From an uncultured virus (IMG/VR IMGVR_UViG_3300021963_006528) (Duplodnaviria > Heunggongvirae > Uroviricota > Caudoviricetes): a stretch of 64,000 nucleotides of DNA. Of this stretch, positions 30,197 to 49,043 are shown one piece after another. The stretch lies in IMG/VR virus record IMGVR_UViG_3300021963_006528. One strand, 5' to 3'. The notes below the pieces were generated by a model, which saw nothing but the letters and a program-made list of their open reading frames with translations, made no database searches and was not told where the DNA came from. Position numbers and translations under genes: made by a program. Numbering within the stretch: the first letter of the stretch is position 1; every line of letters begins with the position of its first letter.

Positions 30197-30202
30197 TGTG
30201 AT

Positions 30203-30934
30203 ATGATTGGTATTGTTGGTTATGGTATGGTGGGGAAAGCCGTTGATTATGGCTTTCCCAATATATCTAAAGTTATTTGTGATCCCAAATATAATGATAC
30301 ATCATTAGAAGAAGTTTGTTCTTCAAATCCAAAGGCAATATTCATTTGCGTTCCAACTCCAACAGATAATACAAATTACAAAATTTTAAAAGATGTATTG
30401 AATCAGATTGTTAAATTTGATTACAAAGGACTAGTAGTAGTAAAATCAACAATATTGCCGCATGAATTAGAGGGTTATGATATAATTTATAATCCTGAAT
30501 TTCTATCAAGAAAAACTTCAAATGAAGATTTTGTTAACCCTCCAATGTTAATTATTGCTGGTAATAAAGCAAAAGAAGTTTTGGATATTTATCAAAAATA
30601 TTCTATTGTTAAAACTGATAATATTTTTTTAACTGATGTGCAAACGGCTAGTCTTGCAAAATATACAATGAATTCATTTTATGCTTTAAAAGTTACTTTT
30701 ATGAATTCGATATATGACATATCAAAAGAAATGAATGTTAACTATAATGAGTTGACTCGAATACTTTCAAAACAACCATGGATGGGTTCACATCATTTTG
30801 AAGTACCTGGTCCCGATGGCCAACGAGGATTTGGTGGTCCATGTTTACCAAAAGACACACAAGCTTTAAGTAAAAAATTTGATATGAAACTTTTAAATAC
30901 TGTATTAGAACTTAATGAACACTATAGGCCATGA
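30203..30934 (+). CDS. UDP-glucose/GDP-mannose dehydrogenase family (short form lacking the C-terminal domain)
   Basis: GYGMVG, ICVPTP, KSTI, YNPEFL, AKY..N.F.A.K and GFGGPCLPKD motifs. Confidence 0.9.
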   Translation: MIGIVGYGMVGKAVDYGFPNISKVICDPKYNDTSLEEVCSSNPKAIFICVPTPTDNTNYKILKDVLNQIVKFDYKGLVVVKSTILPHELEGYDIIYNPEFLSRKTSNEDFVNPPMLIIAGNKAKEVLDIYQKYSIVKTDNIFLTDVQTASLAKYTMNSFYALKVTFMNSIYDISKEMNVNYNELTRILSKQPWMGSHHFEVPGPDGQRGFGGPCLPKDTQALSKKFDMKLLNTVLELNEHYRP

Positions 30935-31935
30935 AACTAGTTACCGTATTTTTATCTGAGAAATGTAATCTCAATTGTTCATATTGCAATCAAGACAAGT
31001 TGTCTAAAGATGTTATAGATCCTCAACTATTTTTAAATGAGTATCGTAGGGTTAGAAAGTCTTTTCCTGATGAGTTGATACAAATCGATTTTTTTGGTGG
31101 TGAACCATTACTCTTTATGGATTTAATAAAGACTATTATTAGTGAAACGGAGAATGATGATAACATTCAATATGGAATGCCAACTAATGGTTTGTTACTT
31201 ACCGAAGAAATTTTAGAGTATTTGATTGAAAAAAAAGTAAATGTATCATTAAGTTTTGATGGATTGTGGCATGATAAAAACAGACTTCAGTTAAATGGTA
31301 AAGGTACTGTACCTAGATTTTTTGAGAAGCGAGAATTGTTCCAAAGAATACCAAATTTTAAGATACACACCATGATCTATAAAGGGTGTTATAACCTTTT
31401 GGAAAACCACCTATATATTAGGAAACACTTTGGTGTTAATCCCGAACTTACTTTGGTTCGTGACATGCATGTTTGGGATTCAAAGAGTGTGGAGAGATTA
31501 AAAACCGGTATAACAGAATTGTTCAATTGGTATATCGATAATCCTGAAGAAGAAATGCCGTATTTCATATTGTTTTATTTACGACATTTTATTAATTATG
31601 AATCTAGAGGATATGTTAAAGATTTTTGTGGTGCAGGAACAGACATTTTTATGTTTAGTGAAAACAAACCGGTACCTTGTAATCGATTTAAAGATAATCC
31701 AGAAATGGTAGAATTAATTCCGGAATATCAACGCATGTCTGAATGCCAAACATGTGAGGTAAAAAATTATTGCGAAAAAGGTTGTTTATTTGAACAGATA
31801 AAGAATAAAGGACCAATAAAAGAATTGTGTGATGTATATAAATTTATGTACAAGAATGTTGGTGATATGACAAAACAATTAAGAAATAATGAAAATTTTA
31901 AAAATACTGTTATGAAAGAACTGATGGATGGCTAA
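30931..31935 (+). CDS. Radical SAM/SPASM domain protein
   Basis: CNLNCSYC, FFGGEPLL, TNG, SFDG; C-terminal CGAG...PC...CQTC...C...C. Confidence 0.92.
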   Translation: MKLVTVFLSEKCNLNCSYCNQDKLSKDVIDPQLFLNEYRRVRKSFPDELIQIDFFGGEPLLFMDLIKTIISETENDDNIQYGMPTNGLLLTEEILEYLIEKKVNVSLSFDGLWHDKNRLQLNGKGTVPRFFEKRELFQRIPNFKIHTMIYKGCYNLLENHLYIRKHFGVNPELTLVRDMHVWDSKSVERLKTGITELFNWYIDNPEEEMPYFILFYLRHFINYESRGYVKDFCGAGTDIFMFSENKPVPCNRFKDNPEMVELIPEYQRMSECQTCEVKNYCEKGCLFEQIKNKGPIKELCDVYKFMYKNVGDMTKQLRNNENFKNTVMKELMDG

Positions 31936-32167
31936 TTCGATAAAGAAAATGAATAAAGCACTTTATGGTGCAGCGTTTCATTTAAATGAAGCTGGAAAAT
32001 ACTTAACTAATGTTGAGGACTTTAGACCTGACGCCGTTAAACTATTTCGTATGGCAGAAGAAATGATAGGTATTGTTAAACCGGAAGTAAACAAGGTTAC
32101 AGAAGAAAAAATGTTTTCAATACTCGATGAAATAATGGAGTTCTCTAAGGAAGAAAAAACTAAATGA
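31928..32167 (+). CDS. Small hypothetical protein between two SPASM enzymes
   Basis: 79 aa; overlaps both neighbours (translational coupling). Confidence 0.7.
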   Translation: MANSIKKMNKALYGAAFHLNEAGKYLTNVEDFRPDAVKLFRMAEEMIGIVKPEVNKVTEEKMFSILDEIMEFSKEEKTK

Positions 32168-33315
32168 ACAAAAAACATGACCAGTTCACATTAGAAATTA
32201 CAACTACTGCACTTTGCAATATGGGTTGCACATATTGTTTTGAAGGGGCAAAAACTAATACACAAAGATTAGATGATAAAGTTGATGTTGTCAAGAAACG
32301 AGTTTATGAACTTTTAGACAGTAGTTTTTTTAAAAACAATTATAAAATGTTAAATTTGACTTTTTGGGGTGGTGAGCCTACACTAAACGGAAATTTGATC
32401 GTAGATATAATGACCGAATTTCAACATTTAGATAAAGTTAACTTTCACATTTATACAAATGGTTATAATAGAAAAAGACTGGATGATATTCTCGATAAAG
32501 TGGATATTCATAAATTGTCCGTACAAATATCACATGATGGTAAAGAAATTGGTGATAAATTTAGAGTCACCCATTCGGGTAAACCAACTTCAGATCAAGT
32601 TGTCGAGAATATAGAATACTTTGCCAAAAAAGGTATTAATGTATTTCTTAAATCCACAATACCTTTAAAGAGTATGAAAGGCCTTTATAATACTTGGTTA
32701 GATTTTAAAGAGTTACATCTCAAACTCAATTCTATAGGACCAAACATTAATGTTTCGTATGCGCCTACAATTGATTATGTTGAAGAAATACCTAAAGAAA
32801 ACTTGGAAGAACTGATTCAAAATTTTAGATCCGAAATGATAAAAATTGCAGCCGAAGAAATCAAGTTTTTTAAAGAACATGGATATCATTTATGCTCATG
32901 GTTTAACGGTTCAGATTCAAAATCTCATTGCACATCTGGTGCTCATATGCATGCCATTGATGTTGATGGTAATAGTTATGCATGCCACGGTTCAATATAT
33001 TCACCTAATAAGGATTTAATGAAAGGTGGTAATATTATGGATGATGGTTTTATAAATAGTGTAGAATCTATGAGTAAGAAATATCAGACTCCTATTAAAG
33101 AAGTGTCTGATATATGTAAAGGATGCGTGGCCACAACATGTATGATTTGTCCAGTTAGTAGTTTGGACAACAGTAAAAAAGAAGATTATTTTGACCGATG
33201 GACGGATAGGTGGGTTAATAATATGTGTGGTTTCTTTAAAGCATTTGGTGAAATTGATAGATCGGTTCAATCATACTTAAATAAAGAAATAAAAATGGTA
33301 GAAAAGGAAATCTAA
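32164..33315 (+). CDS. Radical SAM/SPASM domain protein
   Basis: CNMGCTYC, FWGGEPTL, TNG, SHDG; CTSG...IDVDGNSYACH...CKGC...C..C...C. Confidence 0.92.
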   Translation: MNKKHDQFTLEITTTALCNMGCTYCFEGAKTNTQRLDDKVDVVKKRVYELLDSSFFKNNYKMLNLTFWGGEPTLNGNLIVDIMTEFQHLDKVNFHIYTNGYNRKRLDDILDKVDIHKLSVQISHDGKEIGDKFRVTHSGKPTSDQVVENIEYFAKKGINVFLKSTIPLKSMKGLYNTWLDFKELHLKLNSIGPNINVSYAPTIDYVEEIPKENLEELIQNFRSEMIKIAAEEIKFFKEHGYHLCSWFNGSDSKSHCTSGAHMHAIDVDGNSYACHGSIYSPNKDLMKGGNIMDDGFINSVESMSKKYQTPIKEVSDICKGCVATTCMICPVSSLDNSKKEDYFDRWTDRWVNNMCGFFKAFGEIDRSVQSYLNKEIKMVEKEI

Positions 33316-33316
33316 A

Positions 33317-34027
33317 ATGTGTACTGGAAATCGAGCCCCATGTTCTACAAATAACCCAATCACATTATCTGGTAATTTTGCAATAGCAGGAGCTGTAATT
33401 ACTGCTGAAGACATTAATAATTTAAAAAATGCTATTCGAGCCGAACTAGCAAGATATGCTCAACATAGAAGTTTTGCTAATGCTGGAGATATGGCTTCTG
33501 CTTATATCGCAAATGATTCGAGTGGTGCCAATCACGGCGCAGGTGTTACAGTAATTGATAATAGACATATCAATGATTATGAAACAATTGTACAAAGAGT
33601 AAATAATGTTGTTGAACCCGTTGGATCAAATTATGCCGTTCTTACAGAGCAACCTGATGCAACAACATCACCTAATAGTTATGCTGATGGAGAATTGGTT
33701 GAAGATACGCATTGGTCGGTACTTTTAGAAAAATACAATACTATGCGGCAAGATTGCATTTGCAATTCGGACTGTGCATGTAATTTAGTTTGTAGTTGCA
33801 ATGGTAATTGCGGTTGTAATTATAGTGATGAAAGATTGAAAGAAAATATCAAATATCTTTATACTAAAAAAGGTATTAATTTATACTCATTTAATTATAT
33901 TTGGGACAAAAGTATTACCAAAGTGGGTGTCATGGCGCAAGATTTGTTAAACACAATTTATTCAAACGCTGTTTTAACCGATGAAAACGGATATTATAAA
34001 GTAGACTATAAAAAATTACCAATTTAA
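33317..34027 (+). CDS. Fibre-like protein with Cys-rich (CxCN)x4 array and C-terminal peptidase S74 intramolecular chaperone
   Basis: CICNSDCACNLVCSCNGNCGCNY followed by SDERLKENIK...YSFNYIWD...GVMAQD...GYYKVDY; AAGGA RBS. Confidence 0.85.
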   Translation: MCTGNRAPCSTNNPITLSGNFAIAGAVITAEDINNLKNAIRAELARYAQHRSFANAGDMASAYIANDSSGANHGAGVTVIDNRHINDYETIVQRVNNVVEPVGSNYAVLTEQPDATTSPNSYADGELVEDTHWSVLLEKYNTMRQDCICNSDCACNLVCSCNGNCGCNYSDERLKENIKYLYTKKGINLYSFNYIWDKSITKVGVMAQDLLNTIYSNAVLTDENGYYKVDYKKLPI

Positions 34028-34043
34028 TGAAAGAAGGTTTGAA

Positions 34044-34661
34044 ATGAGTTCCATGATTTATGAATTAGCTACAGTTGTTGATTGCGGTACACATTGGAAA
34101 GTAACCAATGTAACAAAAAATACATTTGACAATTTAGTAAACAATAATGAAAAGTTATTAAAACTGTCTTATGTTTCTTATAAAAAAATTGAAGAAGCTT
34201 TATTGGCCAATAAAACGGTGCATATTACTAAAAATATGATGGCCAATGAAGTACTCCCTTTTGAAGTAGATGTAAAAAATACATCATTAGAAGATCCACT
34301 TCAAGAAGCAAAAAATTATAATTTAGCAAAAATTAGAATGTTGGTAACTCCTGATTTATCTAAAATTGCAGGATTAACACTATATGGTTTTATGGTTTTA
34401 AATAATGATTTAATTAATTCTGGATATGCAATTACAAATGAGAATCGAGAAGAAAAATATTTGCAAATATTAGAAACCGGTGATGAAAAATTAATTTCTA
34501 AATTGGAAGACTATTTGAATTATAAAGATGAAATAGAAAAAGTTGCTCATTTGGAAAGAAAGTTTTCTAAATTTAAAAATGATGTATTATCTTCGTCAAC
34601 AGTAGAAGATATTGATAATATTACAAATAAATTTTTAGAAAATTATTATTTAAATTATTGA
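34044..34661 (+). CDS. Hypothetical protein, possibly a tail-fibre assembly chaperone
   Basis: LQEAKNYNLAKIR and KNDVLSSSTVEDIDNI resemble DUF4376/Tfa-type segments (by eye only). Confidence 0.5.
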   Translation: MSSMIYELATVVDCGTHWKVTNVTKNTFDNLVNNNEKLLKLSYVSYKKIEEALLANKTVHITKNMMANEVLPFEVDVKNTSLEDPLQEAKNYNLAKIRMLVTPDLSKIAGLTLYGFMVLNNDLINSGYAITNENREEKYLQILETGDEKLISKLEDYLNYKDEIEKVAHLERKFSKFKNDVLSSSTVEDIDNITNKFLENYYLNY

Positions 34662-34662
34662 A

Positions 34663-35451
34663 ATGAAATATGGAGTTGTATATAAGTTTAAACCTAACCA
34701 TAAGATAAACGGAACTTTATTTTATTGTTTTGAATACTTTAAATTTTTAAGGCAATACAAAGATTTCAAATTCTATATTGTTGGCATTACGGATAAAGAT
34801 TTAAAGTTAGTACTCAAAATATTCTCCGACAAATACAATACTTCTTTTGATAATATTGTACCTATTAGTTTAGTTGATTTACATAAAGAAAAATTAGATA
34901 AAACATTAGTTTTAGATATTAGAAGTTTTAATGAATGTAAAGAATTTTTAACTAATGAGGTACATTGTTTTAGTAATGAATCTCATGAGGTTTTTCGTTA
35001 TAAAAATGATCGATCTGTAACTTATTATGGTTCATATAATTATCAACCTTTTGATGTTGAATGCCTTTTAAAACTCAATTTTAATTTATTTCATTCATTA
35101 AAACAAAACGGTTATGGAGTATTTGTTAGTGGTTTGAATTTAAATTTTATTCGCCAGAATTTAGAAAAGTGGAAAACTAAGTTCAATCGGCCTATTATAC
35201 TAAAGCAAAGTGATTGTGGATTTGGTAATTTATTTGATATGATAGATGCGGTACATTATGTTCACACTCAGCAAGATACCAATAATCGAATTATTCCTGA
35301 ATCATTTTTCTATAATAAACCGGTAACAATAGAGAAATTATTTAATGAACAAGACAGTATAGAATTGCGTTATAATGATATATTAAATAATGGTTTAAAA
35401 AATTACACCTTAACTGAAAATGATGCCATGGTGCAAGCATGTCTAAAATAG
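34663..35451 (+). CDS. Putative divergent GT-B glycosyltransferase
   Basis: DAVHYV...DTNNRIIPESFFYNKPV resembles the GT-B nucleotide-sugar motif; paralog of the next gene. Confidence 0.45.
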   Translation: MKYGVVYKFKPNHKINGTLFYCFEYFKFLRQYKDFKFYIVGITDKDLKLVLKIFSDKYNTSFDNIVPISLVDLHKEKLDKTLVLDIRSFNECKEFLTNEVHCFSNESHEVFRYKNDRSVTYYGSYNYQPFDVECLLKLNFNLFHSLKQNGYGVFVSGLNLNFIRQNLEKWKTKFNRPIILKQSDCGFGNLFDMIDAVHYVHTQQDTNNRIIPESFFYNKPVTIEKLFNEQDSIELRYNDILNNGLKNYTLTENDAMVQACLK

Positions 35452-36326
35452 TACAACTCGATCCAAAATATGATTTGTGGTTAAGTTACTCATGGAGTGA
35501 TAACAACCATGGTATTTGTGGTCACACATATGAAGTGATAGACTATTACCATATATTAAAAAATCATTTTAAAGTTGGCATACTATTGTGTGAGGATATT
35601 GATTGGAAAACATTTGAATTAAGTATCAAATCAAAATATAATTTTACTGATACTGAAATACAAGACATTAAAGACAATACAATATTTAATAATAGACCAA
35701 ATTTAATTAAAGGTAGTAATATATTATTCACAGATGGTGGTGTTGTGAATATGGAATCCATTACTCTATTATTTAATAACATATTTTATTTTGCTTGTGG
35801 TAATAAAGAAATAAAAAATAATGATAAAGATAATATTTACATATTACAAGATGATAGAGTTTATAAATCTGTAAAACGCAATGGTATCAATTATAAAAAA
35901 AGAATTTTATTTGATAGATTAAAACCTATTGATAAAAGTAAAAATCAAGTATTGATTTACGCTACAAAAAATTGCAGGCATATTTTTAATTTTGATGAGT
36001 ATACCAAATATGGTAAAATAATTGCAATCGTTAATTCTATTCCAAAATCTGTTAGTGGTGTAGAATTTTTAATTCCTCCTGTTGATAATATTTTTGAACA
36101 ATTTGATACCTATGTGTATACTCCTACACCTCGCAAATGGGATTGTAGTCCTAGATTTATTGCTGAATGTAAATATTATGGTAAAAAAGTAATATATTAC
36201 AATATAGACTATTGGGAAGAAGATCACGGATTGCGTGTGCGGAAATGGGACATAGATAATAATTTTGGTAGTTTATTCCTTCAAAAAGATGATGAGATAA
36301 TATCTATCTTAAAGGATAAAATATGA
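35439..36326 (+). CDS. Putative divergent GT-B glycosyltransferase
   Basis: FDTYVY...DCSPRFIAECKYYGKKV motif. Confidence 0.5.
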   Translation: MSKIVQLDPKYDLWLSYSWSDNNHGICGHTYEVIDYYHILKNHFKVGILLCEDIDWKTFELSIKSKYNFTDTEIQDIKDNTIFNNRPNLIKGSNILFTDGGVVNMESITLLFNNIFYFACGNKEIKNNDKDNIYILQDDRVYKSVKRNGINYKKRILFDRLKPIDKSKNQVLIYATKNCRHIFNFDEYTKYGKIIAIVNSIPKSVSGVEFLIPPVDNIFEQFDTYVYTPTPRKWDCSPRFIAECKYYGKKVIYYNIDYWEEDHGLRVRKWDIDNNFGSLFLQKDDEIISILKDKI

Positions 36327-37153
36327 TTTGCATAGACATTATTGAAAAATGTAATTTTAAGTGTCATTTTTGTATGGCCAAAGATATTACCAAACCTGAA
36401 TACATGTCATTGGATCTTTTTAAGAGTATTATTTTACAAGCAAAAGAAATGGGTATCACTAAAATTGATATGATTCCATCTAAAGGTGAACCGTTTTTGC
36501 ATCCAGACATATATGAAATGTTAGAATTTGCTAATACACATATGAAATATGTTATTATATTTACTAATGCTTCAGCAATTAATGTTGATAAATTAAAATT
36601 TATAAATCGAAACAATATTTTATTGTGTGTAAGTTATTACGGATCTACACCAGAAAAATTTAAAGAGTTGACTGCAATGGATAAAAATTTATTTGATGCA
36701 GTACATCGAAAATTATTGGAATTAGATAATAATAACATTAAATACAAACTTGAACATAGAGATTATGGTTGGACATTTAATTATCCAGGAACAGTTTCAG
36801 TTAAAAATCTTGATCCATCAATAAAATGTTCTTTTCATTCTATGCCAAAAATTACTGCAACTGGAGATGTTGTATTTTGTAAATTTATACGTGATAATAT
36901 TTGCACTACAAATTTAGTGGCATTTGCTAATTTAAATACAACATCTTTAAAAGATGCTTTAGAAAATCCTATCAGATATAAATTTTATGATAGTCAAAGT
37001 ATATGCGTTAAACATTGTAGTTCTTATAATGCTACTTGTTATAAAGAAGATATTACTAGTTTTAAAATATTATCGAATAGTAAAAAACATTATTTAAATA
37101 ATCAATCAACAATAGATTACAAATATAAAATTATGGAAAACAATATTAAATGA
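36323..37153 (+). CDS. Radical SAM protein
   Basis: CNFKCHFC, KGEPFLHP, TNA; C-terminal C...GDVVFC...C..HC. Confidence 0.9.
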   Translation: MICIDIIEKCNFKCHFCMAKDITKPEYMSLDLFKSIILQAKEMGITKIDMIPSKGEPFLHPDIYEMLEFANTHMKYVIIFTNASAINVDKLKFINRNNILLCVSYYGSTPEKFKELTAMDKNLFDAVHRKLLELDNNNIKYKLEHRDYGWTFNYPGTVSVKNLDPSIKCSFHSMPKITATGDVVFCKFIRDNICTTNLVAFANLNTTSLKDALENPIRYKFYDSQSICVKHCSSYNATCYKEDITSFKILSNSKKHYLNNQSTIDYKYKIMENNIK

Positions 37154-38190
37154 GAATCTATAACGAACTTAGTAATAAAGTTGATATTGATTACACAGAA
37201 CCTCTTAATAATAGAGCTAAACTAGACACAGGAACGCATTGTAATTATCGTTGTGAGTTTTGTTATTATAAAACGCAACTCAACAATGTAACCAAATTCA
37301 ATGTAATTAAAGAACGTATTGATTACCTTGTGGATTGCGGCATCAAAGAGGTAGACCTTTCTGGAGGAGAATCCAGTATACACAAACAATGGTTTGATAT
37401 ATTAGACTACTGTAAAAATAAAGGTTTGAAAATAAGTACTTTAAGTAATGGTTATAAATTTGCAGATAAACTATTTTTGGCCAAATCTAAAGAACATGGA
37501 TTAAACGAAATACTTTTTAGTGTTCATGGATATGATAAGGAAAGTCACAATACATTAGTTGGGCATCGTAAAGGATTTGAAAACATAGTTCAAGCCATAC
37601 ATAATGCTCATGAATTAGGTATATTAGTCCGTGTTAATTGTACTGTCACACATAAAAACTATGGAAATCTATCGACTCAATTTGTAGATTTGATGAAAGA
37701 ATTAACTCCATATGAAGTTAATTTTTTAACTTTGAATTATTGGAATGATGCGGGAATACAAGACACCATTAATTATAGTGAAGTAATGCCTCATGTACAT
37801 AGTGCTATAGATTTGTTAAAAAGTTTCATACCTATTATTAATGTAAGATACACACCTTATTGTTTCATGAAAGGATATGAACAGTATGTTTGCAATTATT
37901 ACCAACATATCTATGATGTGTATGATTGGAATATTGCTGTTTATGATGGTAAAATTGATCCAATAGATTATAAAAGTGATGTATATAAAGCAATGTATGA
38001 ATCTGCTGAGCTTAGGCGTAATTCAACATATTATAAAAAGAAAGAATGTTTAGATTGCAAACACTATTTTATTTGTGATGGTGTTGAAAAACAAATAAAA
38101 GAAATAGAATTAAAACCTGAAAAAGGTGAAAAGATAAAAGCCGTTAATTTTTATCGAAAAGGATGGTATGGCGGTTCTAGCTCTCGATAA
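37150..38190 (+). CDS. Radical SAM protein with C-terminal Cys cluster
   Basis: CNYRCEFC, SGGE, SNG, SVHG; PYC...CLDC...CDG. Confidence 0.92.
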   Translation: MRIYNELSNKVDIDYTEPLNNRAKLDTGTHCNYRCEFCYYKTQLNNVTKFNVIKERIDYLVDCGIKEVDLSGGESSIHKQWFDILDYCKNKGLKISTLSNGYKFADKLFLAKSKEHGLNEILFSVHGYDKESHNTLVGHRKGFENIVQAIHNAHELGILVRVNCTVTHKNYGNLSTQFVDLMKELTPYEVNFLTLNYWNDAGIQDTINYSEVMPHVHSAIDLLKSFIPIINVRYTPYCFMKGYEQYVCNYYQHIYDVYDWNIAVYDGKIDPIDYKSDVYKAMYESAELRRNSTYYKKKECLDCKHYFICDGVEKQIKEIELKPEKGEKIKAVNFYRKGWYGGSSSR

Positions 38191-40601: not shown

Positions 40602-41488
40602 ATAAAAATATTATTGAAGCTGGTCAACTTGGTGAAATGGTAGTGTTTTATTGGTCTATCATAGACTATTGCCAATGGAAATGTACTTATTGTTGCGCTA
40701 AAGGTATGATGGATGATAATTTATACCGCCAAGGATTATCGCATAGTGCGTATAAATTTGTACTTCATCGTTTAAAAAAATTGGATTTTAATTTTACAAT
40801 TGAAATTCTAGGTGGTGAACCTACATTACATCCAGAATTACCTTATGTTATAGATGAATTACAAAAAATAGAAAATTGTAAAGACATAAGTTTAATTACT
40901 AATTTTGCCAAAGGTTTGAATTATTATTTGCAATTTGATAAACCTAATATAGAAATTCATATAAGTTATCATGTTGAATATAGTAAAAATTTATTGAATA
41001 AAATAATCAAGTTAAATGAACAACTAAAACATGCAAGAGTACTCGTTGAAGTAATTTTATATCCTAAACAAAAATACTATCAACAGATGTTAGATTTTAT
41101 AAAAGGTATGGAAGATAACAACATAAATTTTTGTACTAATTTAACCAATAATAATGAATTTTGGGATGGAATTGTTGAAGATGGTTTTTATAAAACTTTT
41201 GACAAATATCTAACTAACATTGGCACCAAAATTAAACATGTTACGGATACTGGTGTTGAATATGTAACAGAAAATGACATACTTATAAACAATATTAGTT
41301 ATTATGGATATAAATGTCAACCATTAACTTATAAAATTGATGTTGCAGGTAATATTGCAAACCAATGTACCGATGAAAAAATTGGTTTAACCAGCAAAAC
41401 GGAAGACTACACAAAGTTTTTAATTTGTCCCAATAAAAAAAGATGTGCCTGTAGGCCAATGTTACATTATAAAAAATATAAATGTTAA
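40595..41488 (+). CDS. Radical SAM protein
   Basis: CQWKCTYC, GGEPTLHP, TNF, SYH; C-terminal C...C...CP...CAC. Confidence 0.9.
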   Translation: MLNKNIIEAGQLGEMVVFYWSIIDYCQWKCTYCCAKGMMDDNLYRQGLSHSAYKFVLHRLKKLDFNFTIEILGGEPTLHPELPYVIDELQKIENCKDISLITNFAKGLNYYLQFDKPNIEIHISYHVEYSKNLLNKIIKLNEQLKHARVLVEVILYPKQKYYQQMLDFIKGMEDNNINFCTNLTNNNEFWDGIVEDGFYKTFDKYLTNIGTKIKHVTDTGVEYVTENDILINNISYYGYKCQPLTYKIDVAGNIANQCTDEKIGLTSKTEDYTKFLICPNKKRCACRPMLHYKKYKC

Positions 41489-42393
41489 GTTTATCTAAAG
41501 TTATTGATATAGAATTAGAGCTTACAACATTATGTAATGCTCAATGCCAACTTTGTTATCGTAACTATACTTCTTTTACAGAACATTATCCTGAAAATAA
41601 AGTAAGGCCGCTACAAGAAGTTATTACACAACTAGAAACTTTTCCACATCTAGAATGGGTAAGACTTGTTGGTACAATAAGTGAGCCTACTTTATATAAA
41701 GATTTTTTTGGGTTAGTACAATACATTAAAGAACGTAATGTTAATATTGAAATATGCACAAATGGAGATACGCATAAACCAGATTGGTGGAAAGAATTAG
41801 CCACTTATATGAATTCTAATGATAAAGTGTATTTTAGTGTTTGCGGCAGCACACAAGAGTTGCATGAGGTGTATAGAACTAACACTAAGTTAAAACGAAT
41901 ACTTGATAATGCTCGTGCTTTTCGTGGTGCAAATAAAAATGACTATGCTCAATGTATTCGTTTTGATTATAATGATACTAATTTTGATAGTGATGCATTT
42001 AAAAATATGGTATCAGAATTTAGTAATGTATATTGGACAGAAACTTTTTTATTAAAAGATAGATCAAATTATGTAGATACAAGTCGATTAGACAAATTGC
42101 ATCCAAACTCCAAAAAAATAGCTGACTATGAATTTATGGATAAATTTGCAAGAGCTAAGTATGCTAGTCCTGTTAAAGGCAAAGCTTATTGTATGAGTTG
42201 GGAAAATAAAAGTCAACAAATTGATATTGATGGTAAAATATACCCTTGTTACTTATTTTTAGAAGCAAGTAAAGGTAAACCATGGGATGGAGATTATGAT
42301 AAAATTTTAAATATGCAATATGATGTATGTAAATATTGCGACAGAGCAGTTGTTGATTTATGTAATAAAAAAGATTTGAGATATATTATATGA
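41482..42393 (+). CDS. Radical SAM protein (paralog 3 of 3)
   Basis: CNAQCQLC, SEPTLY, CGSTQELHEVYR; C...GKIYPC...CKYC. Confidence 0.9.
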   Translation: MLSLSKVIDIELELTTLCNAQCQLCYRNYTSFTEHYPENKVRPLQEVITQLETFPHLEWVRLVGTISEPTLYKDFFGLVQYIKERNVNIEICTNGDTHKPDWWKELATYMNSNDKVYFSVCGSTQELHEVYRTNTKLKRILDNARAFRGANKNDYAQCIRFDYNDTNFDSDAFKNMVSEFSNVYWTETFLLKDRSNYVDTSRLDKLHPNSKKIADYEFMDKFARAKYASPVKGKAYCMSWENKSQQIDIDGKIYPCYLFLEASKGKPWDGDYDKILNMQYDVCKYCDRAVVDLCNKKDLRYII

Positions 42394-43349
42394 ATAATAA
42401 ATTGCCCATAGTTAAAAATTTAAATTTTAAAAATGATATTGTTTTGGTTGCAGGTGCAGGCGGTACAATTGGAAGTAACATTGTTAAACGCATAATAGCC
42501 AAACAAATTATTGCTATCGACATTAGTGAATATGCAATCTATAAATTGCAAAGAAATAATAATAATGGAAATATAAAATTTATTGTTGGTGATATTAGTG
42601 ATTTAAAATTTGTTAACATGATTTTTAACAAATATAAAATAGATTATGTTTTTAATGCAGCTGCTTATAAACATGTAGATAAGTTACAAGAAAATGATAA
42701 CACATATTCGGTAATTAAAAACAATATTTTATCCGTATTAAATTTATGCAAACACATTGATAAAATTAAAACACTAATACATATTAGTTCTGATAAGGCG
42801 GTTAATCCAATCAACAATATGGGATACACTAAATTATGGTGTGAAAGAATTGTACAACAATATAACAACTGCAAAATAGTTCGGTTTGGTAATGTTTATG
42901 GAAGTTCAGGTAGTTTTATTGAAACTTTAAAATGGCAATTAGAAAATAAACTACCTATTACAATTACCGATAAAAATATGAAAAGATATTTTATGACAGT
43001 AGATGATGCTGTTAGTTTGATACTAGATATTGGTGGTGTTGAATATACCAATGCAACTTATATATTAGATATGAGTAAAGAAATACCTATTGTTGACATT
43101 GTGAATGAATTGAATTATAATAATAGCCCAATAACATATATTGGAATTCGTTCTGGTGAAAAGCTTAATGAAGAATTAGTATGTGATTATGAAGTAATAG
43201 AAAACACAATTCATCCTATGATTAAACGAGTAGGTTGGAAATGTATTGATATGAAAAATAACATTAATATATTATTAAAAGAACTTGGAAAAAATGAAAT
43301 ATGTCTACCAACATTAAACAAAATTATAACAACAACAACGATTTTGTAG
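42390..43349 (+). CDS. UDP-GlcNAc 4,6-dehydratase (PglF/CapD/PseB-like, Polysacc_synt_2)
   Basis: GAGGTIG, AAAYKHV, SSDKAVNP..MG.TK, VRFGNV.GS.GS, MKRYFMT and GEKL.EEL motifs. Confidence 0.92.
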   Translation: MNNKLPIVKNLNFKNDIVLVAGAGGTIGSNIVKRIIAKQIIAIDISEYAIYKLQRNNNNGNIKFIVGDISDLKFVNMIFNKYKIDYVFNAAAYKHVDKLQENDNTYSVIKNNILSVLNLCKHIDKIKTLIHISSDKAVNPINNMGYTKLWCERIVQQYNNCKIVRFGNVYGSSGSFIETLKWQLENKLPITITDKNMKRYFMTVDDAVSLILDIGGVEYTNATYILDMSKEIPIVDIVNELNYNNSPITYIGIRSGEKLNEELVCDYEVIENTIHPMIKRVGWKCIDMKNNINILLKELGKNEICLPTLNKIITTTTIL

Positions 43350-43939
43350 AATTATTTGAACAACGATTATGTGAGTATACAGGCGCACCTTATGCCGTGG
43401 TTGTTGATCGTTGCACTAATGCCATTTTTCTTAGTTTGGAATATCAAGGTAAAAAGAAACAACGAATTACAATACCAATGCATACCTATCTTAGTGTGCC
43501 TATGACTTTAATCAACCATAATTACAATGTATGGTTTCAATTTAAGGAATGGGTTGGTCATTATCAATTAGGTAATACAAACATATATGACTATGCGGTG
43601 CAATTTGAAAAAAATATGTATATTTCTGGCCAAGTTCAATGTGTAAGCTTTCAACAAAAGAAAAGACTTGCAATAGGTAAGGGTGGCGCAATACTTTTAG
43701 ATAATGAAGAAATGTATAAAAAATTGAAACGTATGCGGCACGATGGAAGGAATAGTAGCATTCCGGTTATTCACGAAAAACCAGAAGATATTATAATGGG
43801 TTATCATATGTACATGAGTCCAGACGAAGCTGTAAAAGGACTATTGTTATTAAATCAGTTGACTAGTGATTATACTCTAGGAACATTTAAAGACTATCCT
43901 AACTTATCTTTAATACCTTGTTTGAAAGACTATGTATGA
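43301..43939 (+). CDS. DegT/DnrJ/StrS-family PLP sugar aminotransferase (short)
   Basis: FEQRLCEYTGAPYAVVVDRCTNA, DYA, SFQQKK..IGKGG, R.DGR. Confidence 0.88.
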   Translation: MSTNIKQNYNNNNDFVELFEQRLCEYTGAPYAVVVDRCTNAIFLSLEYQGKKKQRITIPMHTYLSVPMTLINHNYNVWFQFKEWVGHYQLGNTNIYDYAVQFEKNMYISGQVQCVSFQQKKRLAIGKGGAILLDNEEMYKKLKRMRHDGRNSSIPVIHEKPEDIIMGYHMYMSPDEAVKGLLLLNQLTSDYTLGTFKDYPNLSLIPCLKDYV

Positions 43940-44763
43940 AATACGCATTGATTACCGCTATTGAAGGTAATGGTAATAATTTAAACGAACAAAAAGGTAT
44001 AGTACAAACAAGAAGATTGTTCGAGAGTGAGGCCATACTTTGTTTTGAAAATTGGAGAAAAAATGGTGGATGGTTAAAAGACTGTTCAATCTATGCTTTC
44101 TGTCCAACAAAAAATGTTATATCAGAAAAAACAAAAAGTCGATTTAAAGAATTAAATGTAAATTACATTGAAGAATACCAACCTATTACAGAAACTTTTA
44201 TTAGTGGATTTTTAAATGTACCTTTAATTGGTAAATTATTAGAAGAAAGACTATCTGAAGATGTTCTAATTAAAATAGATTTAGATATGAATTTAATTAA
44301 ACCATTGCCACAAGATTTGGTCAATAGTGATATTTTAATTTGTGGGCAATATGATGACTATTGCACAGCTCAGCAACGAACTGTAACTGAAGGATGGTCA
44401 AATCCGTTCGATACAGGTTTTACTATTAGTAGAAAAAATAGTGGGTTCTACAAATTCTTTTTTGATGTATTGACCGATACCATGAATAATCACGATGAAG
44501 AATGGGAAAAAGTTCGTACAGTTTCAGGTAATTATTACCTAGAAGAATATGTTATGGATAAAATTTATAACAAAAAACTCTGGCCAGTAAAACCAATTCA
44601 AAAATACCAAATAGGTGAATGGTATACTCCAGTTAAAGAGTTTACTGATGACGAATTAAAGAATGTATATTTTTGGCACGAACATTTAATTAGTGATCCC
44701 GCTTATGATAAAATAAAACAAAAAGTTGAATACTTCAATAGAATGAAAAAAATAAATGATTAA
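43936..44763 (+). CDS. Putative GT-A glycosyltransferase (GT8-like)
   Basis: IKIDLDM DxD motif and FDTGF; start at the ATGA overlap (43936). Confidence 0.6.
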   Translation: MKYALITAIEGNGNNLNEQKGIVQTRRLFESEAILCFENWRKNGGWLKDCSIYAFCPTKNVISEKTKSRFKELNVNYIEEYQPITETFISGFLNVPLIGKLLEERLSEDVLIKIDLDMNLIKPLPQDLVNSDILICGQYDDYCTAQQRTVTEGWSNPFDTGFTISRKNSGFYKFFFDVLTDTMNNHDEEWEKVRTVSGNYYLEEYVMDKIYNKKLWPVKPIQKYQIGEWYTPVKEFTDDELKNVYFWHEHLISDPAYDKIKQKVEYFNRMKKIND

Positions 44764-45832
44764 TTCACATACCAGTTTTGGAAAATTAAAAGAGGTGGTT
44801 GTCGGTAGAGAATTGTCATTGACAAAAAGACTATCTGATATTACTTTTAAACAGTTCTATAAATCGGCAATTAATGAAAGTGTTTATGAAAGTCCTTTCG
44901 ATTCATATCATGTTAATATGGACTTAATTGATAAACGAAATGAACAACTGGACGATTTGGCTAAAACTTTAGAGAATAAAGGTATTATAGTTCATCGACC
45001 TGATCCTTTAAATAAAATTGTTCCTTTTACCACACCTAGTTTCAAATCTGAATTGAGTAGTGCCAGTAATGTAAGAGATGTTACTTGGGTGTATTGTAAC
45101 AAAATTATTGAAACACCAACATATGTAAGAAATCGGTATTATGAAAATACTTTATTATATAATGTTTATAATAAGGTGTGGGATAAAGGCCGAGGTGGCC
45201 AATGGATTAGATGCCCACAAACGGATTTATCAGAAGAAAAAATGGACTTAGAACATTGGGGTGATACAAGAGATTATTCTAATGTGCCGGCAAACTATAC
45301 CATGGCAATCGATGGCGCTCAATTTTTAAAAATAGGTAAAGATGTTATTGTCAATGTCAATAGTTACAATCAATACCTAGGTTACGAATGGGTTAAAAGT
45401 TTTTTTCCAGAAACCAATTTCCACATGATTAGTGTTGTGGACAATCACATAGATGGTTGTATCATTTCTTTGCGACCAGGAGTCTTTTTGGTCAATCCTA
45501 TCTATACTAATATTAGAGATGTAATGCCAGAAAGATTTAAAAACTGGACTTATTTGTACCCGAAAGACTTAACAGTAAATTTAGATGTTACGGGTATGAC
45601 AGATATAGACATTAGACTTGCCAGCTCAAGAGGCATGGATGTTAATATATTAAGTATAGATGAAAAAACAGTAGTTGTTAATAAACGGGCTTACGGAGTT
45701 AAAGACATTTTAAGTAAAAATGGATTTGATATTATCGAGGTTGAATTGGAAAATGGTGAGATATTTGCTGGCGGTATACATTGTTCCACTTTAGATTTGG
45801 TCCGAGAAGATGAATTTGTAACATATAAATAA
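44756..45832 (+). CDS. Amidinotransferase (glycine/inosamine-phosphate amidinotransferase family)
   Basis: LKEVVVG, VRD, R..E, DGA, HIDG, LRPG and GGIHCSTLDL catalytic motifs. Confidence 0.92.
   Translation: MINSHTSFGKLKEVVVGRELSLTKRLSDITFKQFYKSAINESVYESPFDSYHVNMDLIDKRNEQLDDLAKTLENKGIIVHRPDPLNKIVPFTTPSFKSELSSASNVRDVTWVYCNKIIETPTYVRNRYYENTLLYNVYNKVWDKGRGGQWIRCPQTDLSEEKMDLEHWGDTRDYSNVPANYTMAIDGAQFLKIGKDVIVNVNSYNQYLGYEWVKSFFPETNFHMISVVDNHIDGCIISLRPGVFLVNPIYTNIRDVMPERFKNWTYLYPKDLTVNLDVTGMTDIDIRLASSRGMDVNILSIDEKTVVVNKRAYGVKDILSKNGFDIIEVELENGEIFAGGIHCSTLDLVREDEFVTYK
45824..45831 (+). promoter_or_regulatory. T4-type late promoter inside the enzyme island
   Basis: Perfect TATAAATA, 27 nt before the ORF at 45859, which has an AGGA RBS. 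Confidence 0.65.
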
Positions 45833-45858
45833 TACACAATAAATTAGTTAGGAAAAAT

Positions 45859-46650
45859 ATGACAAATATACCAAGCGAATATAGAATACCTGGAGACGAA
45901 ACTCCATGGAGAAAAGCTGCCATACTTGCTTTTGAAGCTGAATTCGATACCTTTGTTGACGTTGATTTAAAATGGGGTATGCATCACATGTTTTTCAAAC
46001 ATGAAAATCATGCATATTATTATAAACCATTTTTGCAATTGGAAATTGATAATGATATTAAAGTCACTACAGAAGAAGGAGATTGTAGGCGTCCTTGGTT
46101 AACAGAAATTGAAAATTATTTGGGTTATGAAGTTCAAGCATTTACCAGACTTTTGCCTAATCCATCTTTAAGATGGATGAGAGAAACAATGGAAAAAAAT
46201 CCACCAGGTTTACCTAAATTTGTATTAGAAACTCCTAACTTTTTTAAATTAGAACTTGAATGTGATAATCCTGATAATATGAAACATATCAGTATCGATG
46301 ATTTGGATCGTCCAACTCTCGATAAAATTAAAAATTCTATTGGTGGTGATTATAATCCATTTTTAACTCCATATTTTGGTGAATCACTTTATGATTTTGA
46401 TGGTAGATATTACTGCATGGATCCTTTTGCATACTATTATAATCCTAGTCCTAAAGGACAAATTGGTATATTTTTGCATCCCGAATATGAATCTTCGAAA
46501 TATGAAAATACATTAAATAATTCATATTTTTTTACCTTTCAGAGAATTACACCAGAACAAAGACAATTTATTTTAAATTTAGGAAAAGTACATACTTCTC
46601 CACCACAATACTCAAATGATACTATCATAAAAGAATACTTTAAGTTATGA
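45859..46650 (+). CDS. Hypothetical protein
   Basis: 263-aa ORF with RBS; no recognisable motif. Confidence 0.7.
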   Translation: MTNIPSEYRIPGDETPWRKAAILAFEAEFDTFVDVDLKWGMHHMFFKHENHAYYYKPFLQLEIDNDIKVTTEEGDCRRPWLTEIENYLGYEVQAFTRLLPNPSLRWMRETMEKNPPGLPKFVLETPNFFKLELECDNPDNMKHISIDDLDRPTLDKIKNSIGGDYNPFLTPYFGESLYDFDGRYYCMDPFAYYYNPSPKGQIGIFLHPEYESSKYENTLNNSYFFTFQRITPEQRQFILNLGKVHTSPPQYSNDTIIKEYFKL

Positions 46651-47537
46651 AATATTTGTTATTAGGTGGTGCAGGATTTATAGGTCAAAATTTAGCTAAA
46701 AGACTAATCAAAACTGGTAATGAAGTTACCATTATTGATTCTTTGTTTACCTCACATAAACCCGATTTGAATTGTGAATTTGTATTGGGTGACATAACAA
46801 AAATTGATATTGAAAAATATATCAAAAAATGTCCAATAGTTTATTTTTTGGCCGGATCTGTAGGGGTGGATATGATTGTCAATCAACCTCAACGATGTTT
46901 AACTAACAATATTGATTTAATCACCACTCTTTTTCCACTCTTTAAAAAATATAAACCTAAAGTCATTTTTTCATCCACATCTGAAGTTTATGGTGATGGT
47001 CCTTTTAATGAATCAAGTAGTTTAACAATTGGGTCACCAGAAAATTTAAGATGGTCTTATGCTGCTTCAAAATTACTTACAGAATTTTTTATGACTTCAG
47101 GTAATTTTCCATATATCATAACAAGGTTTTTCAACATAGTAGGACCAGGTCAACTACCACATTTTGGTATGGTATTACCAAGATTTATTAAAGCTGCAAA
47201 AAATAATGAAGATTTAATTGTTTACGGAGATGGTTCACAGATTAGGTCTTTCTGTCATATAGACGATGCAATTAATATTTTATTGCAGGTGCAGGATTTG
47301 GAAGAACAAATATTTAATGTAGGTAACGATGAACCTATCACAATTAAAGAGTTGGCAGAAAAAGTTATTCAATTAAGTGGTAGTAAAAGTCAAATAAAAT
47401 TTGTGAATCCAAAAGAAATATATGCAAAAAATTATGCAGATATTAATAAACGAATACCTGACCTTACCAAATTAAAACAAACAATTATATATTCAAACAA
47501 ATATTCTATTGACGATATAATTAAATCTTTATTATGA
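46647..47537 (+). CDS. NAD-dependent epimerase/dehydratase (extended SDR)
   Basis: GGAGFIG, SSTSEVYG, YAASK, RFFNIVGP and GDGSQIRSFC motifs. Confidence 0.93.
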   Translation: MKYLLLGGAGFIGQNLAKRLIKTGNEVTIIDSLFTSHKPDLNCEFVLGDITKIDIEKYIKKCPIVYFLAGSVGVDMIVNQPQRCLTNNIDLITTLFPLFKKYKPKVIFSSTSEVYGDGPFNESSSLTIGSPENLRWSYAASKLLTEFFMTSGNFPYIITRFFNIVGPGQLPHFGMVLPRFIKAAKNNEDLIVYGDGSQIRSFCHIDDAINILLQVQDLEEQIFNVGNDEPITIKELAEKVIQLSGSKSQIKFVNPKEIYAKNYADINKRIPDLTKLKQTIIYSNKYSIDDIIKSLL

Positions 47538-48196
47538 AAATATTATTCATTGTTGCTCATCCTGATGATGAAGCTTACGGACCATTTGGAACTATTGCTA
47601 GAAAGGTTCAAGAAAATAACGAAGTTACGGTATTGTGCTTGTGTACAGGTAAAAGACCTAATGCAAACCAAGAAGTTTCAAAAAATAGAATTGAAACTTT
47701 TATTTTAAATTGTCATAATTTAAATGTTAAATATGAATTGTGGGATAATGATGATTTAAATTTAACTTTAAATGAAACTGCACACAAACTTACAAAATTT
47801 ATTGATTTGAATAAACCTGAAATAGTTTATACTCACAATATTTCTGATATAAATCACGATCATCAAATTGCAGCTGAAGCAACTTTAATTGCATGTAGAC
47901 CTAAGCCCGAATGTAGTGTAAATGAATTGTATTTTTTTGAAGTGCCATCAAGTACTGATTGGACTTTCTCACAAATACAACCACCATTTCAACCCAATAG
48001 TTATGTAGATATTGGTGATTATATTACTCTTAAGCAATTGGCGCTATCTAAATATACAACCGAAACTTATGATTATCCAGATGCAAGAAGTGTAGAGTCT
48101 ATGATTACTTTATCAAAGTACCGTGGTTATCAAGTAGGTTTTAATTATGCGGAAGCTTTTCAATTGGTGTTCTCTCGTTACCGTAAAAATCGGTAA
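47534..48196 (+). CDS. PIG-L/LmbE family N-acetyl-sugar deacetylase
   Basis: AHPDDE, THN.SD.N.DH and AEAF motifs. Confidence 0.92.
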   Translation: MKILFIVAHPDDEAYGPFGTIARKVQENNEVTVLCLCTGKRPNANQEVSKNRIETFILNCHNLNVKYELWDNDDLNLTLNETAHKLTKFIDLNKPEIVYTHNISDINHDHQIAAEATLIACRPKPECSVNELYFFEVPSSTDWTFSQIQPPFQPNSYVDIGDYITLKQLALSKYTTETYDYPDARSVESMITLSKYRGYQVGFNYAEAFQLVFSRYRKNR

Positions 48197-48701
48197 AACC
48201 ATATTTTTTAAGTAATGATTTATATAAACCATTATAGTCATTATTATAGGGAAAACAAAACTTGGTGGGTTTAAAATTTAGATTATTTTTGAACCATTCT
48301 ATCATAGATTTAGTATCATTTTCTATGTAAGTTATTTTTTCATATAGTGAAACAAAGTTGGTCAAATTTTTGTGATTATGAGAATGACCACCAATAGTAA
48401 CATTAGGTTTTGACATTAGTTCTTTAACTTGTTCTAAGGTCATATAATCTTCTTTGTTACCTAAAAAAGCCTTTTTGTGAGATTCGGAACAAGTTAAAAA
48501 ATTATTTGATTGATTACCATCACAAATAATGTTAGAAGATATGAAGAATATTTTTTCAGTATCTATTGACTCAAAGTGTTTAAAATGATAGTATTGACTA
48601 TAAAGACCATCGTCAAAAGTTAAGATGTAGTTTTCCAAAGGTAAGTTGAATAGTTTTTCAGTTACCTCATGGATCATTAGAACTTTTTTGTTGGTCATCA
48701 T
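48141..48701 (-). CDS. Polysaccharide deacetylase (NodB/CE4-like)
   Basis: LTFDDG, IGGHSHNH and FCFPYN motifs. Confidence 0.88.
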   Translation of the reverse strand: MMTNKKVLMIHEVTEKLFNLPLENYILTFDDGLYSQYYHFKHFESIDTEKIFFISSNIICDGNQSNNFLTCSESHKKAFLGNKEDYMTLEQVKELMSKPNVTIGGHSHNHKNLTNFVSLYEKITYIENDTKSMIEWFKNNLNFKPTKFCFPYNNDYNGLYKSLLKKYGFTDFYGNERTPIEKLPHN

Positions 48702-48722
48702 ATATCTATATTAGGAGAAAAA

Positions 48723-49043
48723 ATGATTGAAATTACTGAGGCCGCAGCCAAACAAATTAAAGAAATTATGTTAGATTCCGAACCCAATAAATTTTTAAGA
48801 ATTTATGTCGAGGGTGGTGGTTGTTCGGGTATGCGTTATGGTTTTGATTTGGAAGAATTTGCAAATGAAGATGATTTTTCTTTGGAAACAAAAGGTGTCA
48901 ATCTATTAATTGATGGTATGAGTATGTCATATCTAAATGGTGCCGAAGTTGACTATAAAGAAGATTTAATTGGTTCGTCTTTCAGTATAAACAATCCAAA
49001 TGCAGAAACAAGTTGTGGTTGCGGAAGTAGTTTTTCGGTATAA
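48723..49043 (+). CDS. erpA: A-type Fe-S cluster carrier (ErpA/IscA/HesB family)
   Basis: ITEAAA...LRIYVEGGGCSG..Y...YL.GAEVDY...NPNA.TSCGCGSSF; AGGAG RBS. Confidence 0.93.
   Translation: MIEITEAAAKQIKEIMLDSEPNKFLRIYVEGGGCSGMRYGFDLEEFANEDDFSLETKGVNLLIDGMSMSYLNGAEVDYKEDLIGSSFSINNPNAETSCGCGSSFSV

Follow-up and report, generated by a model that had tools for sequence, protein, structure and literature searches.

An island of coupled enzyme genes (positions 30203 to 49043) lies between two tail-fibre genes in a 64,000-nucleotide stretch of DNA, hereafter the window, which is part of the genome of an uncultured marine T4-like myophage (IMG/VR record IMGVR_UViG_3300021963_006528). To judge by its sequence features, the core of this island is that of a system resembling those for peptides that are made on ribosomes and modified after translation (RiPPs): two radical S-adenosylmethionine (SAM) maturases of the SPASM type stand just ahead of a gene for a protein with a regular cysteine array. 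The linkage between the array protein and the maturases is very strong. Gene content, folds, family likenesses, linkage and the optional nature of the island are matters of direct observation. Our best explanation of them, held tentatively and at slightly under an even chance, is the enzymatic thioether stapling, perhaps with amino- or guanidino-sugar decoration, of a fibre-type protein.

Maturases and the cysteine-array protein

Genes are named here by the first position of their coordinates and lie on the plus strand unless stated. The two maturases, 30931 (30931..31935) and 32164 (32164..33315), align over their full length to PapB (NF047865), the best family for both (E = 1.6e-29 and 9e-27, respectively), with further matches to QhpD, CcpM, SCIFF, CXXX-repeat and CrpC-family maturases; for 32164 the CXXX-repeat and CrpC (TIGR04463) families gave E values of 1.3e-20 and 1e-17. 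The full seven-cysteine SPASM pattern of 30931 (C233, C250, Cx2Cx5Cx3C at residues 272-285, and C300) fits two auxiliary clusters, and 32164 has the same number of cysteines with a Cx2Cx4Cx2C spacing. The best match of 32164 in the PDB is CteB (5wgg), and since this alignment begins at CteB residue 105, past the peptide-binding RiPP recognition element (RRE), 32164 lacks a fused RRE. Between the two maturases lies a helical, acidic protein of 79 residues (31928..32167), conserved in that position, Halobacteriovorax included. It may be a stand-alone RRE, but it has no family match and its sequence looks all-helical.

The array protein, 33317 (33317..34027), has 236 residues and carries the array (CxCxxx)3CxC-N-Y at residues 147-169, followed by a Peptidase_S74 domain (30.1 bits against the Pfam cut-off of 22). 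This domain is opened by S170-D-E-R-L-K175, directly after Y169, which conforms to the family pattern S-D-x-R-L-K; S170 and K175 are invariant in 26 sequences, and S170, D171, R173, L174 and K175 are invariant at the domain start. At S74 cleavage sites, a serine and a lysine five residues apart are catalytic. The array is likewise conserved, with C147, C149, D152, C153, C155, N156, C159, C161, C165, C167 and Y169 invariant in 22 core sequences of 28% mean identity, and exactly four CxC pairs in 63 of the 66 arrays found in 71 loci. The family comprises 136 members in 90% clusters, or, when clustered at 50% identity, 385 representatives up to an E value of 0.001 (194 up to 1e-10), some of them without the S74 domain. 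Four proteins of 672-833 residues with no Pfam family (P0330, P0342, P0350 and P0367) end exactly in the same eight-cysteine array and, like 33317, have a Cys/His stretch at the N terminus and a D-I-N-x-L helix motif.

Directly downstream lies 34044 (34044..34661), a partner of 205 residues with no assigned family. Its weak leads (tail-assembly chaperone/DUF4376) fall below the reporting threshold of the search, its family profile found nothing under E 0.03 among PDB sequences, and a complex prediction with residues 1-169 of the array protein scored 0.00, which gives no verdict either way.

We propose that 30931 and 32164 would put thioether links on the eight-cysteine array of 33317, most likely from the second cysteine of each CxC to the residue three positions on (D152, V158 and N/D164), with the terminal tyrosine possibly involved. 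The S74 domain would trimerise 33317 and then cut itself off after Tyr169, so that the stapled array would become the free tip of a short fibre-type protein. We infer every chemical step in this scheme, as well as the target and its location in the virion.

Full-text literature searches found no description of a phage Cys-array protein with maturases. Thioether stapling by radical SAM enzymes is known from small peptides and, since 2026, from one archaeal protein, and we know of no virus particle protein made in this way. The closest described system is CrpC/CrpA of Methanococcus voltae (PMC13692751, 2026), for which the portions of the article available to us describe a radical SAM enzyme of the SPASM type whose gene adjoins that of a Cys-rich protein; the latter has repeats towards its C terminus, and C-x-x-D/Q motifs. 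According to the same portions, CrpC installs thioether (ranthionine) links on the whole protein CrpA and not on a short peptide, and the motif taken there as the thioether signature in CrpA/B has the C-x-x-D spacing of our array. The two systems differ in that CrpC has a fused RRE whereas the phage enzymes begin after the RRE region, and in that CrpA has ten 17-residue repeats against the four CxC hexads of the window. Unlike CrpC/CrpA, the window cassette also stands in a phage fibre context, includes a self-cleaving S74 domain, and brings with it glycosyltransferases, sugar enzymes and another seven radical SAM genes.

PapB/PapA (freyrasin) and CteB/CteA supply the best NCBIfam family and the best solved structure for the maturases, and PapB joins cysteine to the carbon next to a carboxylate, the C-terminal one included (PMC12373016, as far as the accessible text goes). 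In contrast to these ranthipeptide systems, the substrate in the window would be a mature protein of 169 residues, or elsewhere the tip of proteins of up to 833 residues, and no leader-binding RRE was seen. The family that ranks second for 30931 (E = 2.7e-23) is QhpD, a SPASM enzyme which cross-links cysteine to Asp/Glu within a protein subunit, although only the N-terminal 127 residues align and the window has no quinone cofactor context. The S74 domain resembles those of endosialidase and the T5 L-shaped fibre in its Pfam match and its invariant domain-start residues, but in the window its removal would unmask a cysteine array rather than a beta-helix stalk or receptor-binding tip.

Relatives, sister cassettes and bacterial copies

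Linkage was counted in 14 viral loci and in 54 metagenome loci, the latter scored where the flank was sufficient (at least 600 nt for the 32164 type); several loci are the same or near-identical contigs and the counts are accordingly not independent. Immediately upstream of the array gene stands a gene of the 32164 type in 14/14 viral and 49/49 metagenome loci, and also in all three Bdellovibrionota loci, while the 34044 type lies downstream in 14/14 and 48/48. The other core genes follow closely: 30931 type (13/14 viral, 33/36 metagenome), 35439 type (14/14, 31/33), 34663 type (13/14, 28/33) and 37150 type (13/14, 26/27). Even the most reduced variant (L020, L058, L061-63) retains 32164, the array gene, 34044, NodB, 35439, 37150, PIG-L and SDR genes. 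The cysteine-rich, fibre-like reading frame singled out in an earlier interpretation of the island, made from its letters and reading frames (the sequence-only reading), is 33317 with its eight-cysteine array and S74 domain, and it is tied to maturases in every relative with enough flank. The order of maturase, array gene and 34044 is kept in the loci of relatives, not scattered.

At its right end the island holds an ErpA-type carrier of Fe-S clusters (48723..49043), a call made earlier from sequence and borne out here by NF010147 (141.6 bits against a cut-off of 117; cysteines C34, C98 and C100). ErpA tracks the cassettes: it is present in seven of nine cassette-bearing sequences (the window, L007, G002, G003, G004, G012 and G013, but not G005 and G006, both incomplete) and in 0/3 cassette-less relatives, so the co-occurrence envisaged in the sequence-only reading extends to the carrier. 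Among 50,697 deposited phage records only 11 have ErpA, several of them resembling bacterial fragments. In our scheme ErpA would assist the loading of the numerous [4Fe-4S] clusters within an aerobic host.

Twenty-five relatives were examined, each with at least 6 kb after the gene for a VrlC-like protein, VrlC being presumably the DUF4815 protein. Four of them carry this cassette. In seven others, six of which are near-identical, the cassette encodes a Cys protein with (CTCNCNY)x4 at its end, followed in L127 by S-D-R-R-L-K and an S74 domain; two have a Cxxx-repeat protein with three other SPASM enzymes, and 12 are without a Cys-repeat gene. In 10 of these 12, the homologues of 27062 and 49098/49635 are neighbours or stand a few kb apart, and no island gene separates them. 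The maturases of the sister variants are only 22-28% identical to those of the window, so the kind of repeat and the kind of enzyme vary in step, as they do in RiPP systems. One complete relative of 162 kb, which lacks the cassette, has no Radical_SAM match and no ErpA, while three cassette-bearing records have 8 to 12 Radical_SAM matches each, nearly all within the cassette. The island is an accessory, optional insert and not part of the basic virion, and the cassette is mobile, inserted between tail-fibre genes. The Cys proteins of the sister cassettes occupy the same site (L111:25212-25820, L127:25168-26115 and L097:20993-21619) and have their own distant SPASM sets; those ending in (CTCNCNY)x4 occur both with and without an S74 domain.

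The cassette is also found in two Halobacteriovorax genomes and in one Bdellovibrionales metagenome-assembled genome, at 31-60% identity. In Halobacteriovorax it adjoins chorismate synthase and aroBA, outside any recognisable prophage. There the array protein ends exactly at the tyrosine, and in the Bdellovibrionales genome one residue later, with no S74 domain in either; the tyrosine end of the Halobacteriovorax copies supports the idea that S74 cleavage in the phages would free the same end. Further downstream, the Halobacteriovorax cluster holds a GT-A-like gene (52% identity), a full-length DegT of 357 residues, PIG-L, a 40595-type radical SAM gene and NodB, together with SDR, a full-length UGDH of 398 residues and a 38168-type radical SAM gene. 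This content indicates that nearly the whole island is one portable unit, accompanied by an extracellular fibre-type protein in both settings. Within the Halobacteriovorax cassette itself lies a protein of 526 residues (L082:11487-13067, minus strand) whose N terminus bears a type-IV-pilin methylation signal and whose C terminus is a Peptidase_S74 domain, with Thr/Asn-rich repeats as well; we know of no earlier description of such a pilin-fibre chimera. Since Halobacteriovorax chromosomes hold nearly the full set, a Cys protein without S74 and a pilin-type fibre, the system is not virion-specific. Of the earlier proposal of a late virion-modification cluster, the conserved, co-oriented unit behind a late-type motif stands, and the specificity for virions does not.

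These comparisons also bear on a simpler view, which we consider unlikely, in which the array is a metal-thiolate or disulfide knot stabilising a trimeric fibre, comparable to the iron sites that His-x-His motifs form in T4 gp37 or to a cluster of the metallothionein kind. All radical SAM enzymes would then work on sugar or another substrate, and adjacency would reflect co-assembly only. The exact six-residue period, the four layers, the asparagine at position 4 of each repeat and the trimerising S74 domain would suit such a knot, CxCxxxCxCxxxCxC is also a metal-binding metallothionein pattern, and an ErpA gene lies within the island; the authors of the CrpA study suggest, in the part of their article at hand, that the modified protein may bind metals (PMC13692751). 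A knot of this kind is harder to reconcile with an upstream gene that is always of the peptide- or protein-maturase SPASM type, with the covariation of repeat and maturase types, and with bacterial copies that have no S74 domain.

Radical SAM paralogues and sugar-type enzymes

The nine CxxxCxxC radical SAM reading frames listed in the sequence-only reading all hold up. Each of them (30931, 32164, 36323, 37150, 38168, 38776, 39687, 40595 and 41482) has a single N-terminal CxxxCxxC motif at residues 10-31 and matches PF04055 (Radical_SAM), eight of the nine above the Pfam cut-off of 29.5 bits; the ninth, 40595, reaches 26.8 bits (E = 7e-6) and also matches phrog_13987 (E = 2.7e-28). Beyond the two maturases, 36323 (36323..37153) has a weak SPASM match and is found in only some relatives. 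The core cassette member 37150 (37150..38190) is 48% identical to Campylobacter phage proteins, and its best PDB matches, through the core domain only, are a viperin-like enzyme (7n7h) and BlsE (7vob), which act on nucleotides or nucleoside sugars. The small enzyme 38168 (38168..38779; 203 residues) occurs in 0 to 4 tandem copies in relatives. The remaining four (38776, 39687, 40595 and 41482; 38776..42393) consist of the phrog_13987-type 40595 lying between members of a trio, 38776, 39687 and 41482. In the tree, the members of the trio are old paralogues of one another, and each has a separate orthologue in Halobacteriovorax (support of 100/97 for group a and 99/99 for group c; group b did not resolve).

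Among relatives, 38168- and 40595-type copy numbers range from 0 to 5. Because these numbers vary while the array is fixed, most of the other radical SAM enzymes would edit something else, most simply sugar. For the same reason, we set aside as unlikely the idea that nine enzymes each staple one site of the array.

A related module was described in the Campylobacter phages CP220 and CPt10; the sections of that article at our disposal (PMC2853527) present it as interchangeable, list five radical SAM genes in it along with one putative glycine amidinotransferase, and guess at a metabolic benefit. The island shares with it the 38776-type trio (30-40% identity), the amidinotransferase (43%), the GT-A-like protein (28-37%) and a small radical SAM protein, that is, families at 28-43% identity, and like the island the CP220 module lies among baseplate and fibre genes. 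It differs in having no Cys-array protein and no PapB-like pair, and its three trio genes form a separate clade with those of L019. The array part itself gave 0 matches against the 50,697 phage records.

Profile and structure searches largely upheld the family calls that the sequence-only reading had made for the other enzymes, and added GT-B folds for two of them. Three glycosyltransferase-like reading frames had been listed. Two, 34663 (34663..35451) and 35439 (35439..36326), have no Pfam match, and their family profiles found nothing under E 0.03 among PDB sequences. AlphaFold2 models of both (predicted local distance difference test scores of 92 and 90, respectively) have the GT-B fold, with Foldseek matches at template-modelling (TM) scores of 0.43-0.62 and probabilities up to 1.00: PglH (6eji, E = 2.5e-4) and PimA (TM 0.62) for 34663, and WbnH (4xyw), PglA, OGT/SPY, EarP and BshA for 35439. 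By these models they are putative glycosyltransferases. The third, 43918 (43918..44763), is called GT-A-like from its DxD motif and a depositor SUPERFAMILY note (nucleotide-diphospho-sugar transferase-like) for its CP220 homologues gp082/088/089. It has invariant IDLDM (containing the DxD) and F-x-H-x-H motifs, and its family profile found nothing in Pfam and nothing under E 0.03 among PDB sequences.

The sugar-nucleotide enzymes fared unevenly. The supposed UDP-sugar dehydrogenase 30203 (30203..30934) resembles UDP-glucose dehydrogenase (UGDH) in its NAD and central domains and keeps the catalytic-cysteine motif, but with only 243 residues it lacks the UDP-binding C-terminal domain and thus the three-domain architecture of UDP-glucose/GDP-mannose dehydrogenases. 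This gene is 61% identical between the window (variant A, 30203-30934) and a sister cassette (variant B, L111:19709-20443), whose maturases share only 24-28%; it opens the variant B cassettes too, and it is missing from cassette-less relatives. The proposed 4,6-dehydratase 42390 is PseB/FnlA-like and is followed by the DegT-like 43301, both recognised by profile (42390..43939); 43301 matches in two short stretches over only 212 residues, and is not a full DegT/PseC fold-type I enzyme of about 360 residues. This pair is absent from L006 and L007, which are about 90% identical elsewhere, and in which 41482 is directly followed by a homologue of 43918 (61-63% identical). The gene content of the island is mosaic even among close kin.

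The amidinotransferase had been correctly recognised: 44756 (44756..45832) aligns with AGAT (2jdx, E = 1.8e-31) over residues 3-354, including the GGxHC motif, and also matches HsvA, SxtG and StrB1, with only 17.7 bits for the Pfam ADI family. From this we predict a true arginine amidinotransferase. After a 263-residue protein with no family match (45859..46650) comes an extended short-chain dehydrogenase/reductase (SDR), 46647 (46647..47537). The SDR assignment is sound, but since the best match is a UDP-xylose/4-keto-pentose synthase (UXS/ArnA-like) the enzyme would be of the decarboxylase type and not the plain epimerase first suggested. Profiles confirmed both deacetylases, PIG-L (47534..48196, best match BshB1) and NodB (48141..48701, minus strand), the latter lying inside the core cassette in some relatives. 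In the proposed scheme this remaining set, namely two GT-B proteins, one GT-A-like protein, the UGDH-, UXS/ArnA-, PseB- and DegT-like proteins, PIG-L, NodB, the amidinotransferase and seven radical SAM enzymes, would probably build and edit an amino- or guanidino-sugar placed on 33317 or on a neighbouring fibre.

The product of the same enzymes could instead be diffusible, a reading to which we give a low probability: it would be a glycosylated molecule, either a peptide-derived cofactor or antibiotic-like, that is cut from the C terminus of 33317. The route might be mycofactocin-like (C-terminal tyrosine, SPASM enzyme, glycosyltransferase) or aminoglycoside-like (amidinotransferase, PIG-L, aminotransferase, radical SAM). 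The invariant terminal tyrosine, freed by cleavage or by a stop codon, the likeness of the enzyme set to aminoglycoside and blasticidin pathways (StrB1 and SxtG for 44756, BlsE for 37150) and the presence of the cassette in bacterial chromosomes all accord with such a product. The authors of S-SCSM2R likewise read similar genes as antibiotic synthesis genes (PMC12801897, in the text available). However, no protease, exporter or immunity gene was found in the island, the array also terminates proteins of 672-833 residues, S74 domains belong to trimeric fibres, and the genes are located among fibre genes behind late-type promoter motifs.

Hypermodification of phage DNA by sugar or amino-acid adducts with radical SAM help is very unlikely. 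Radical SAM enzymes are reportedly involved in thymidine hypermodification, Campylobacter phages with the related module have modified DNA, and a QueD gene lies 6 kb from the CP220 module. Nevertheless, family scans of the island gave no match to DpdA, QueC, FolE, a hydroxymethylase, a kinase or a DNA glycosyltransferase, in line with the lack of such markers noted from sequence, the complete cassette-less relative lives without any radical SAM gene, and the array protein would be left unexplained.

Several points weigh against thioether stapling of a fibre-type protein. The maturases score 103.2 (30931) and 94.1 bits (32164) against the PapB cut-off of 340, and 32164 has 64 bits against the CrpC family cut-off of 525 and so lies outside that family; no RRE is fused to the maturases, and none was recognised in 31928 or 34044 by profile matching. 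Most of the nine radical SAM enzymes probably do not act on the array, and Campylobacter phages have the trio, the amidinotransferase and the GT-A part without the array protein. That the system can do without a virion is shown by the bacterial copies and by those that lack S74. The array itself has the metallothionein pattern, a beta-helix with a plain structural role would fit the asparagine that recurs at position 4, and an invariant tip is unusual for a receptor-binding fibre end. The truncated UGDH-like and DegT-like proteins may not carry out the textbook reactions.

A broader reading goes beyond stapling and is possible but doubtful: phages and predatory bacteria would share a portable kit that makes a small protein into an enzyme-stapled, guanidino-sugar-bearing fibre tip, the first radical-SAM modification of a virus particle, and Cys-repeat/maturase cassettes swapped at a single hot spot among the tail-fibre genes would form a new layer of variation in host recognition or particle stability. 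If this were true, phages abundant in the ocean would use oxygen-sensitive enzymes, inside aerobic hosts, to harden or tune a fibre tip chemically, and phage adsorption devices would be linked to the fibres with which predatory bacteria attach to prey. The radical SAM modules of Campylobacter phages and pelagimyophages, long unexplained, would gain a function, and compact RRE-less maturases as well as a self-cleaving tag would become available for protein engineering.

Fibre-gene setting and late-promoter motifs

Judged by its gp6 homologue, the window is closest among cultured phages to Methylophilales phage Melnitz (44% identity) and Pelagibacter phage HTVC008M (42%). A 46-kb fragment, G001, is the nearest record and carries the start of the same island, and a megablast search of the island against the 50,697 phage records gave no match. 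The left flank of the island holds genes for the baseplate, tail tube and hub and for a DUF4815 protein of 2066 residues (20623-26823), and the right flank several fibre-type genes.

The position between two tail-fibre genes reported in the sequence-only reading is sustained on both sides: 49635 matches tail-fibre PHROGs, and 27062 (27062..30196), with 1044 residues and no cysteine, is fibre-like by its repeats and by the likeness of its C terminus to the end of CP220 gp103, a 'tail fiber protein' (36% over 101 residues). The C-terminal 100-140 residues or so of 27062 (residues ~904-1044) are kept beside the cassette in many relatives whose fibres are otherwise different. We infer a fibre context for the cassette from the S74 domain, the operon opening with fibre gene 27062 and the pilin-S74 protein of Halobacteriovorax.

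Twenty genes abut or overlap from 27062 to 45832. The coupling described earlier is indeed tight, as 15 of the 18 junctions within 30203-45832 are overlaps, two are of 1 nt and one is of 16 nt. An ATAAATA late-promoter-like motif (26963..26969) lies 99 nt upstream of 27062, the first gene of this run, and seven of the 11 plus-strand ATAAATA sites, this one included, lie 11-99 nt upstream of a gene start. The perfect late-promoter motif noted at 45824 is present: TATAAATA occupies 45824..45831, 28 nt before the ATG at 45859, as a putative promoter. A second plus-strand copy inside 32164 (33051..33058), 266 nt upstream of the array gene, is a possible internal late promoter. TATAAATA is under-represented across the window (4 sites against 14 expected), with three of its sites placed 4 to 28 nt upstream of the start of a gene (7695 on the minus strand, 45859 and 55542). 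These motifs suggest that the island is probably transcribed together with the fibre genes from late-type promoters.

The setting matches the hypervariable host recognition cluster of pelagimyophages, defined after the VrlC gene and containing fibres and non-fibre genes (PMC7029224, from the passages available): in the window the DUF4815 protein is followed by fibres and the island, and the region varies in relatives. In those passages, Zaragoza-Solas et al. place lipopolysaccharide-type genes and radical SAM cassettes in this cluster and propose modification of the host O-chain. By analogy with the pelagimyophage glycosyltransferases, the island could remodel a host surface glycan during infection, for serotype conversion or superinfection exclusion, and its optional, patchy presence would agree with that role. 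We regard it as quite improbable. No membrane-helix-like stretch was found in any island protein and all the island enzymes are soluble; the island contains no flippase, polymerase, ligase or polyprenyl-phosphate transferase. The late-type promoter motifs and the coupling to a fibre gene also argue against it, and it leaves the array protein and its maturases unexplained.

In composition, the island (30001-48000) has a G+C fraction of 0.25-0.32, compared with 0.38-0.40 in the fibre genes that flank it and roughly 0.32 in the window's left half, and the GC skew is strongly positive (0.14-0.23) over most of it, falling to 0.03 at 46001-48000. Among the fibre genes on the right, 55542-57587 encodes a protein whose N-terminal domain is Mtd_N (major tropism determinant), and 59140-60531 a 463-residue RCC1-repeat (beta-propeller) protein.

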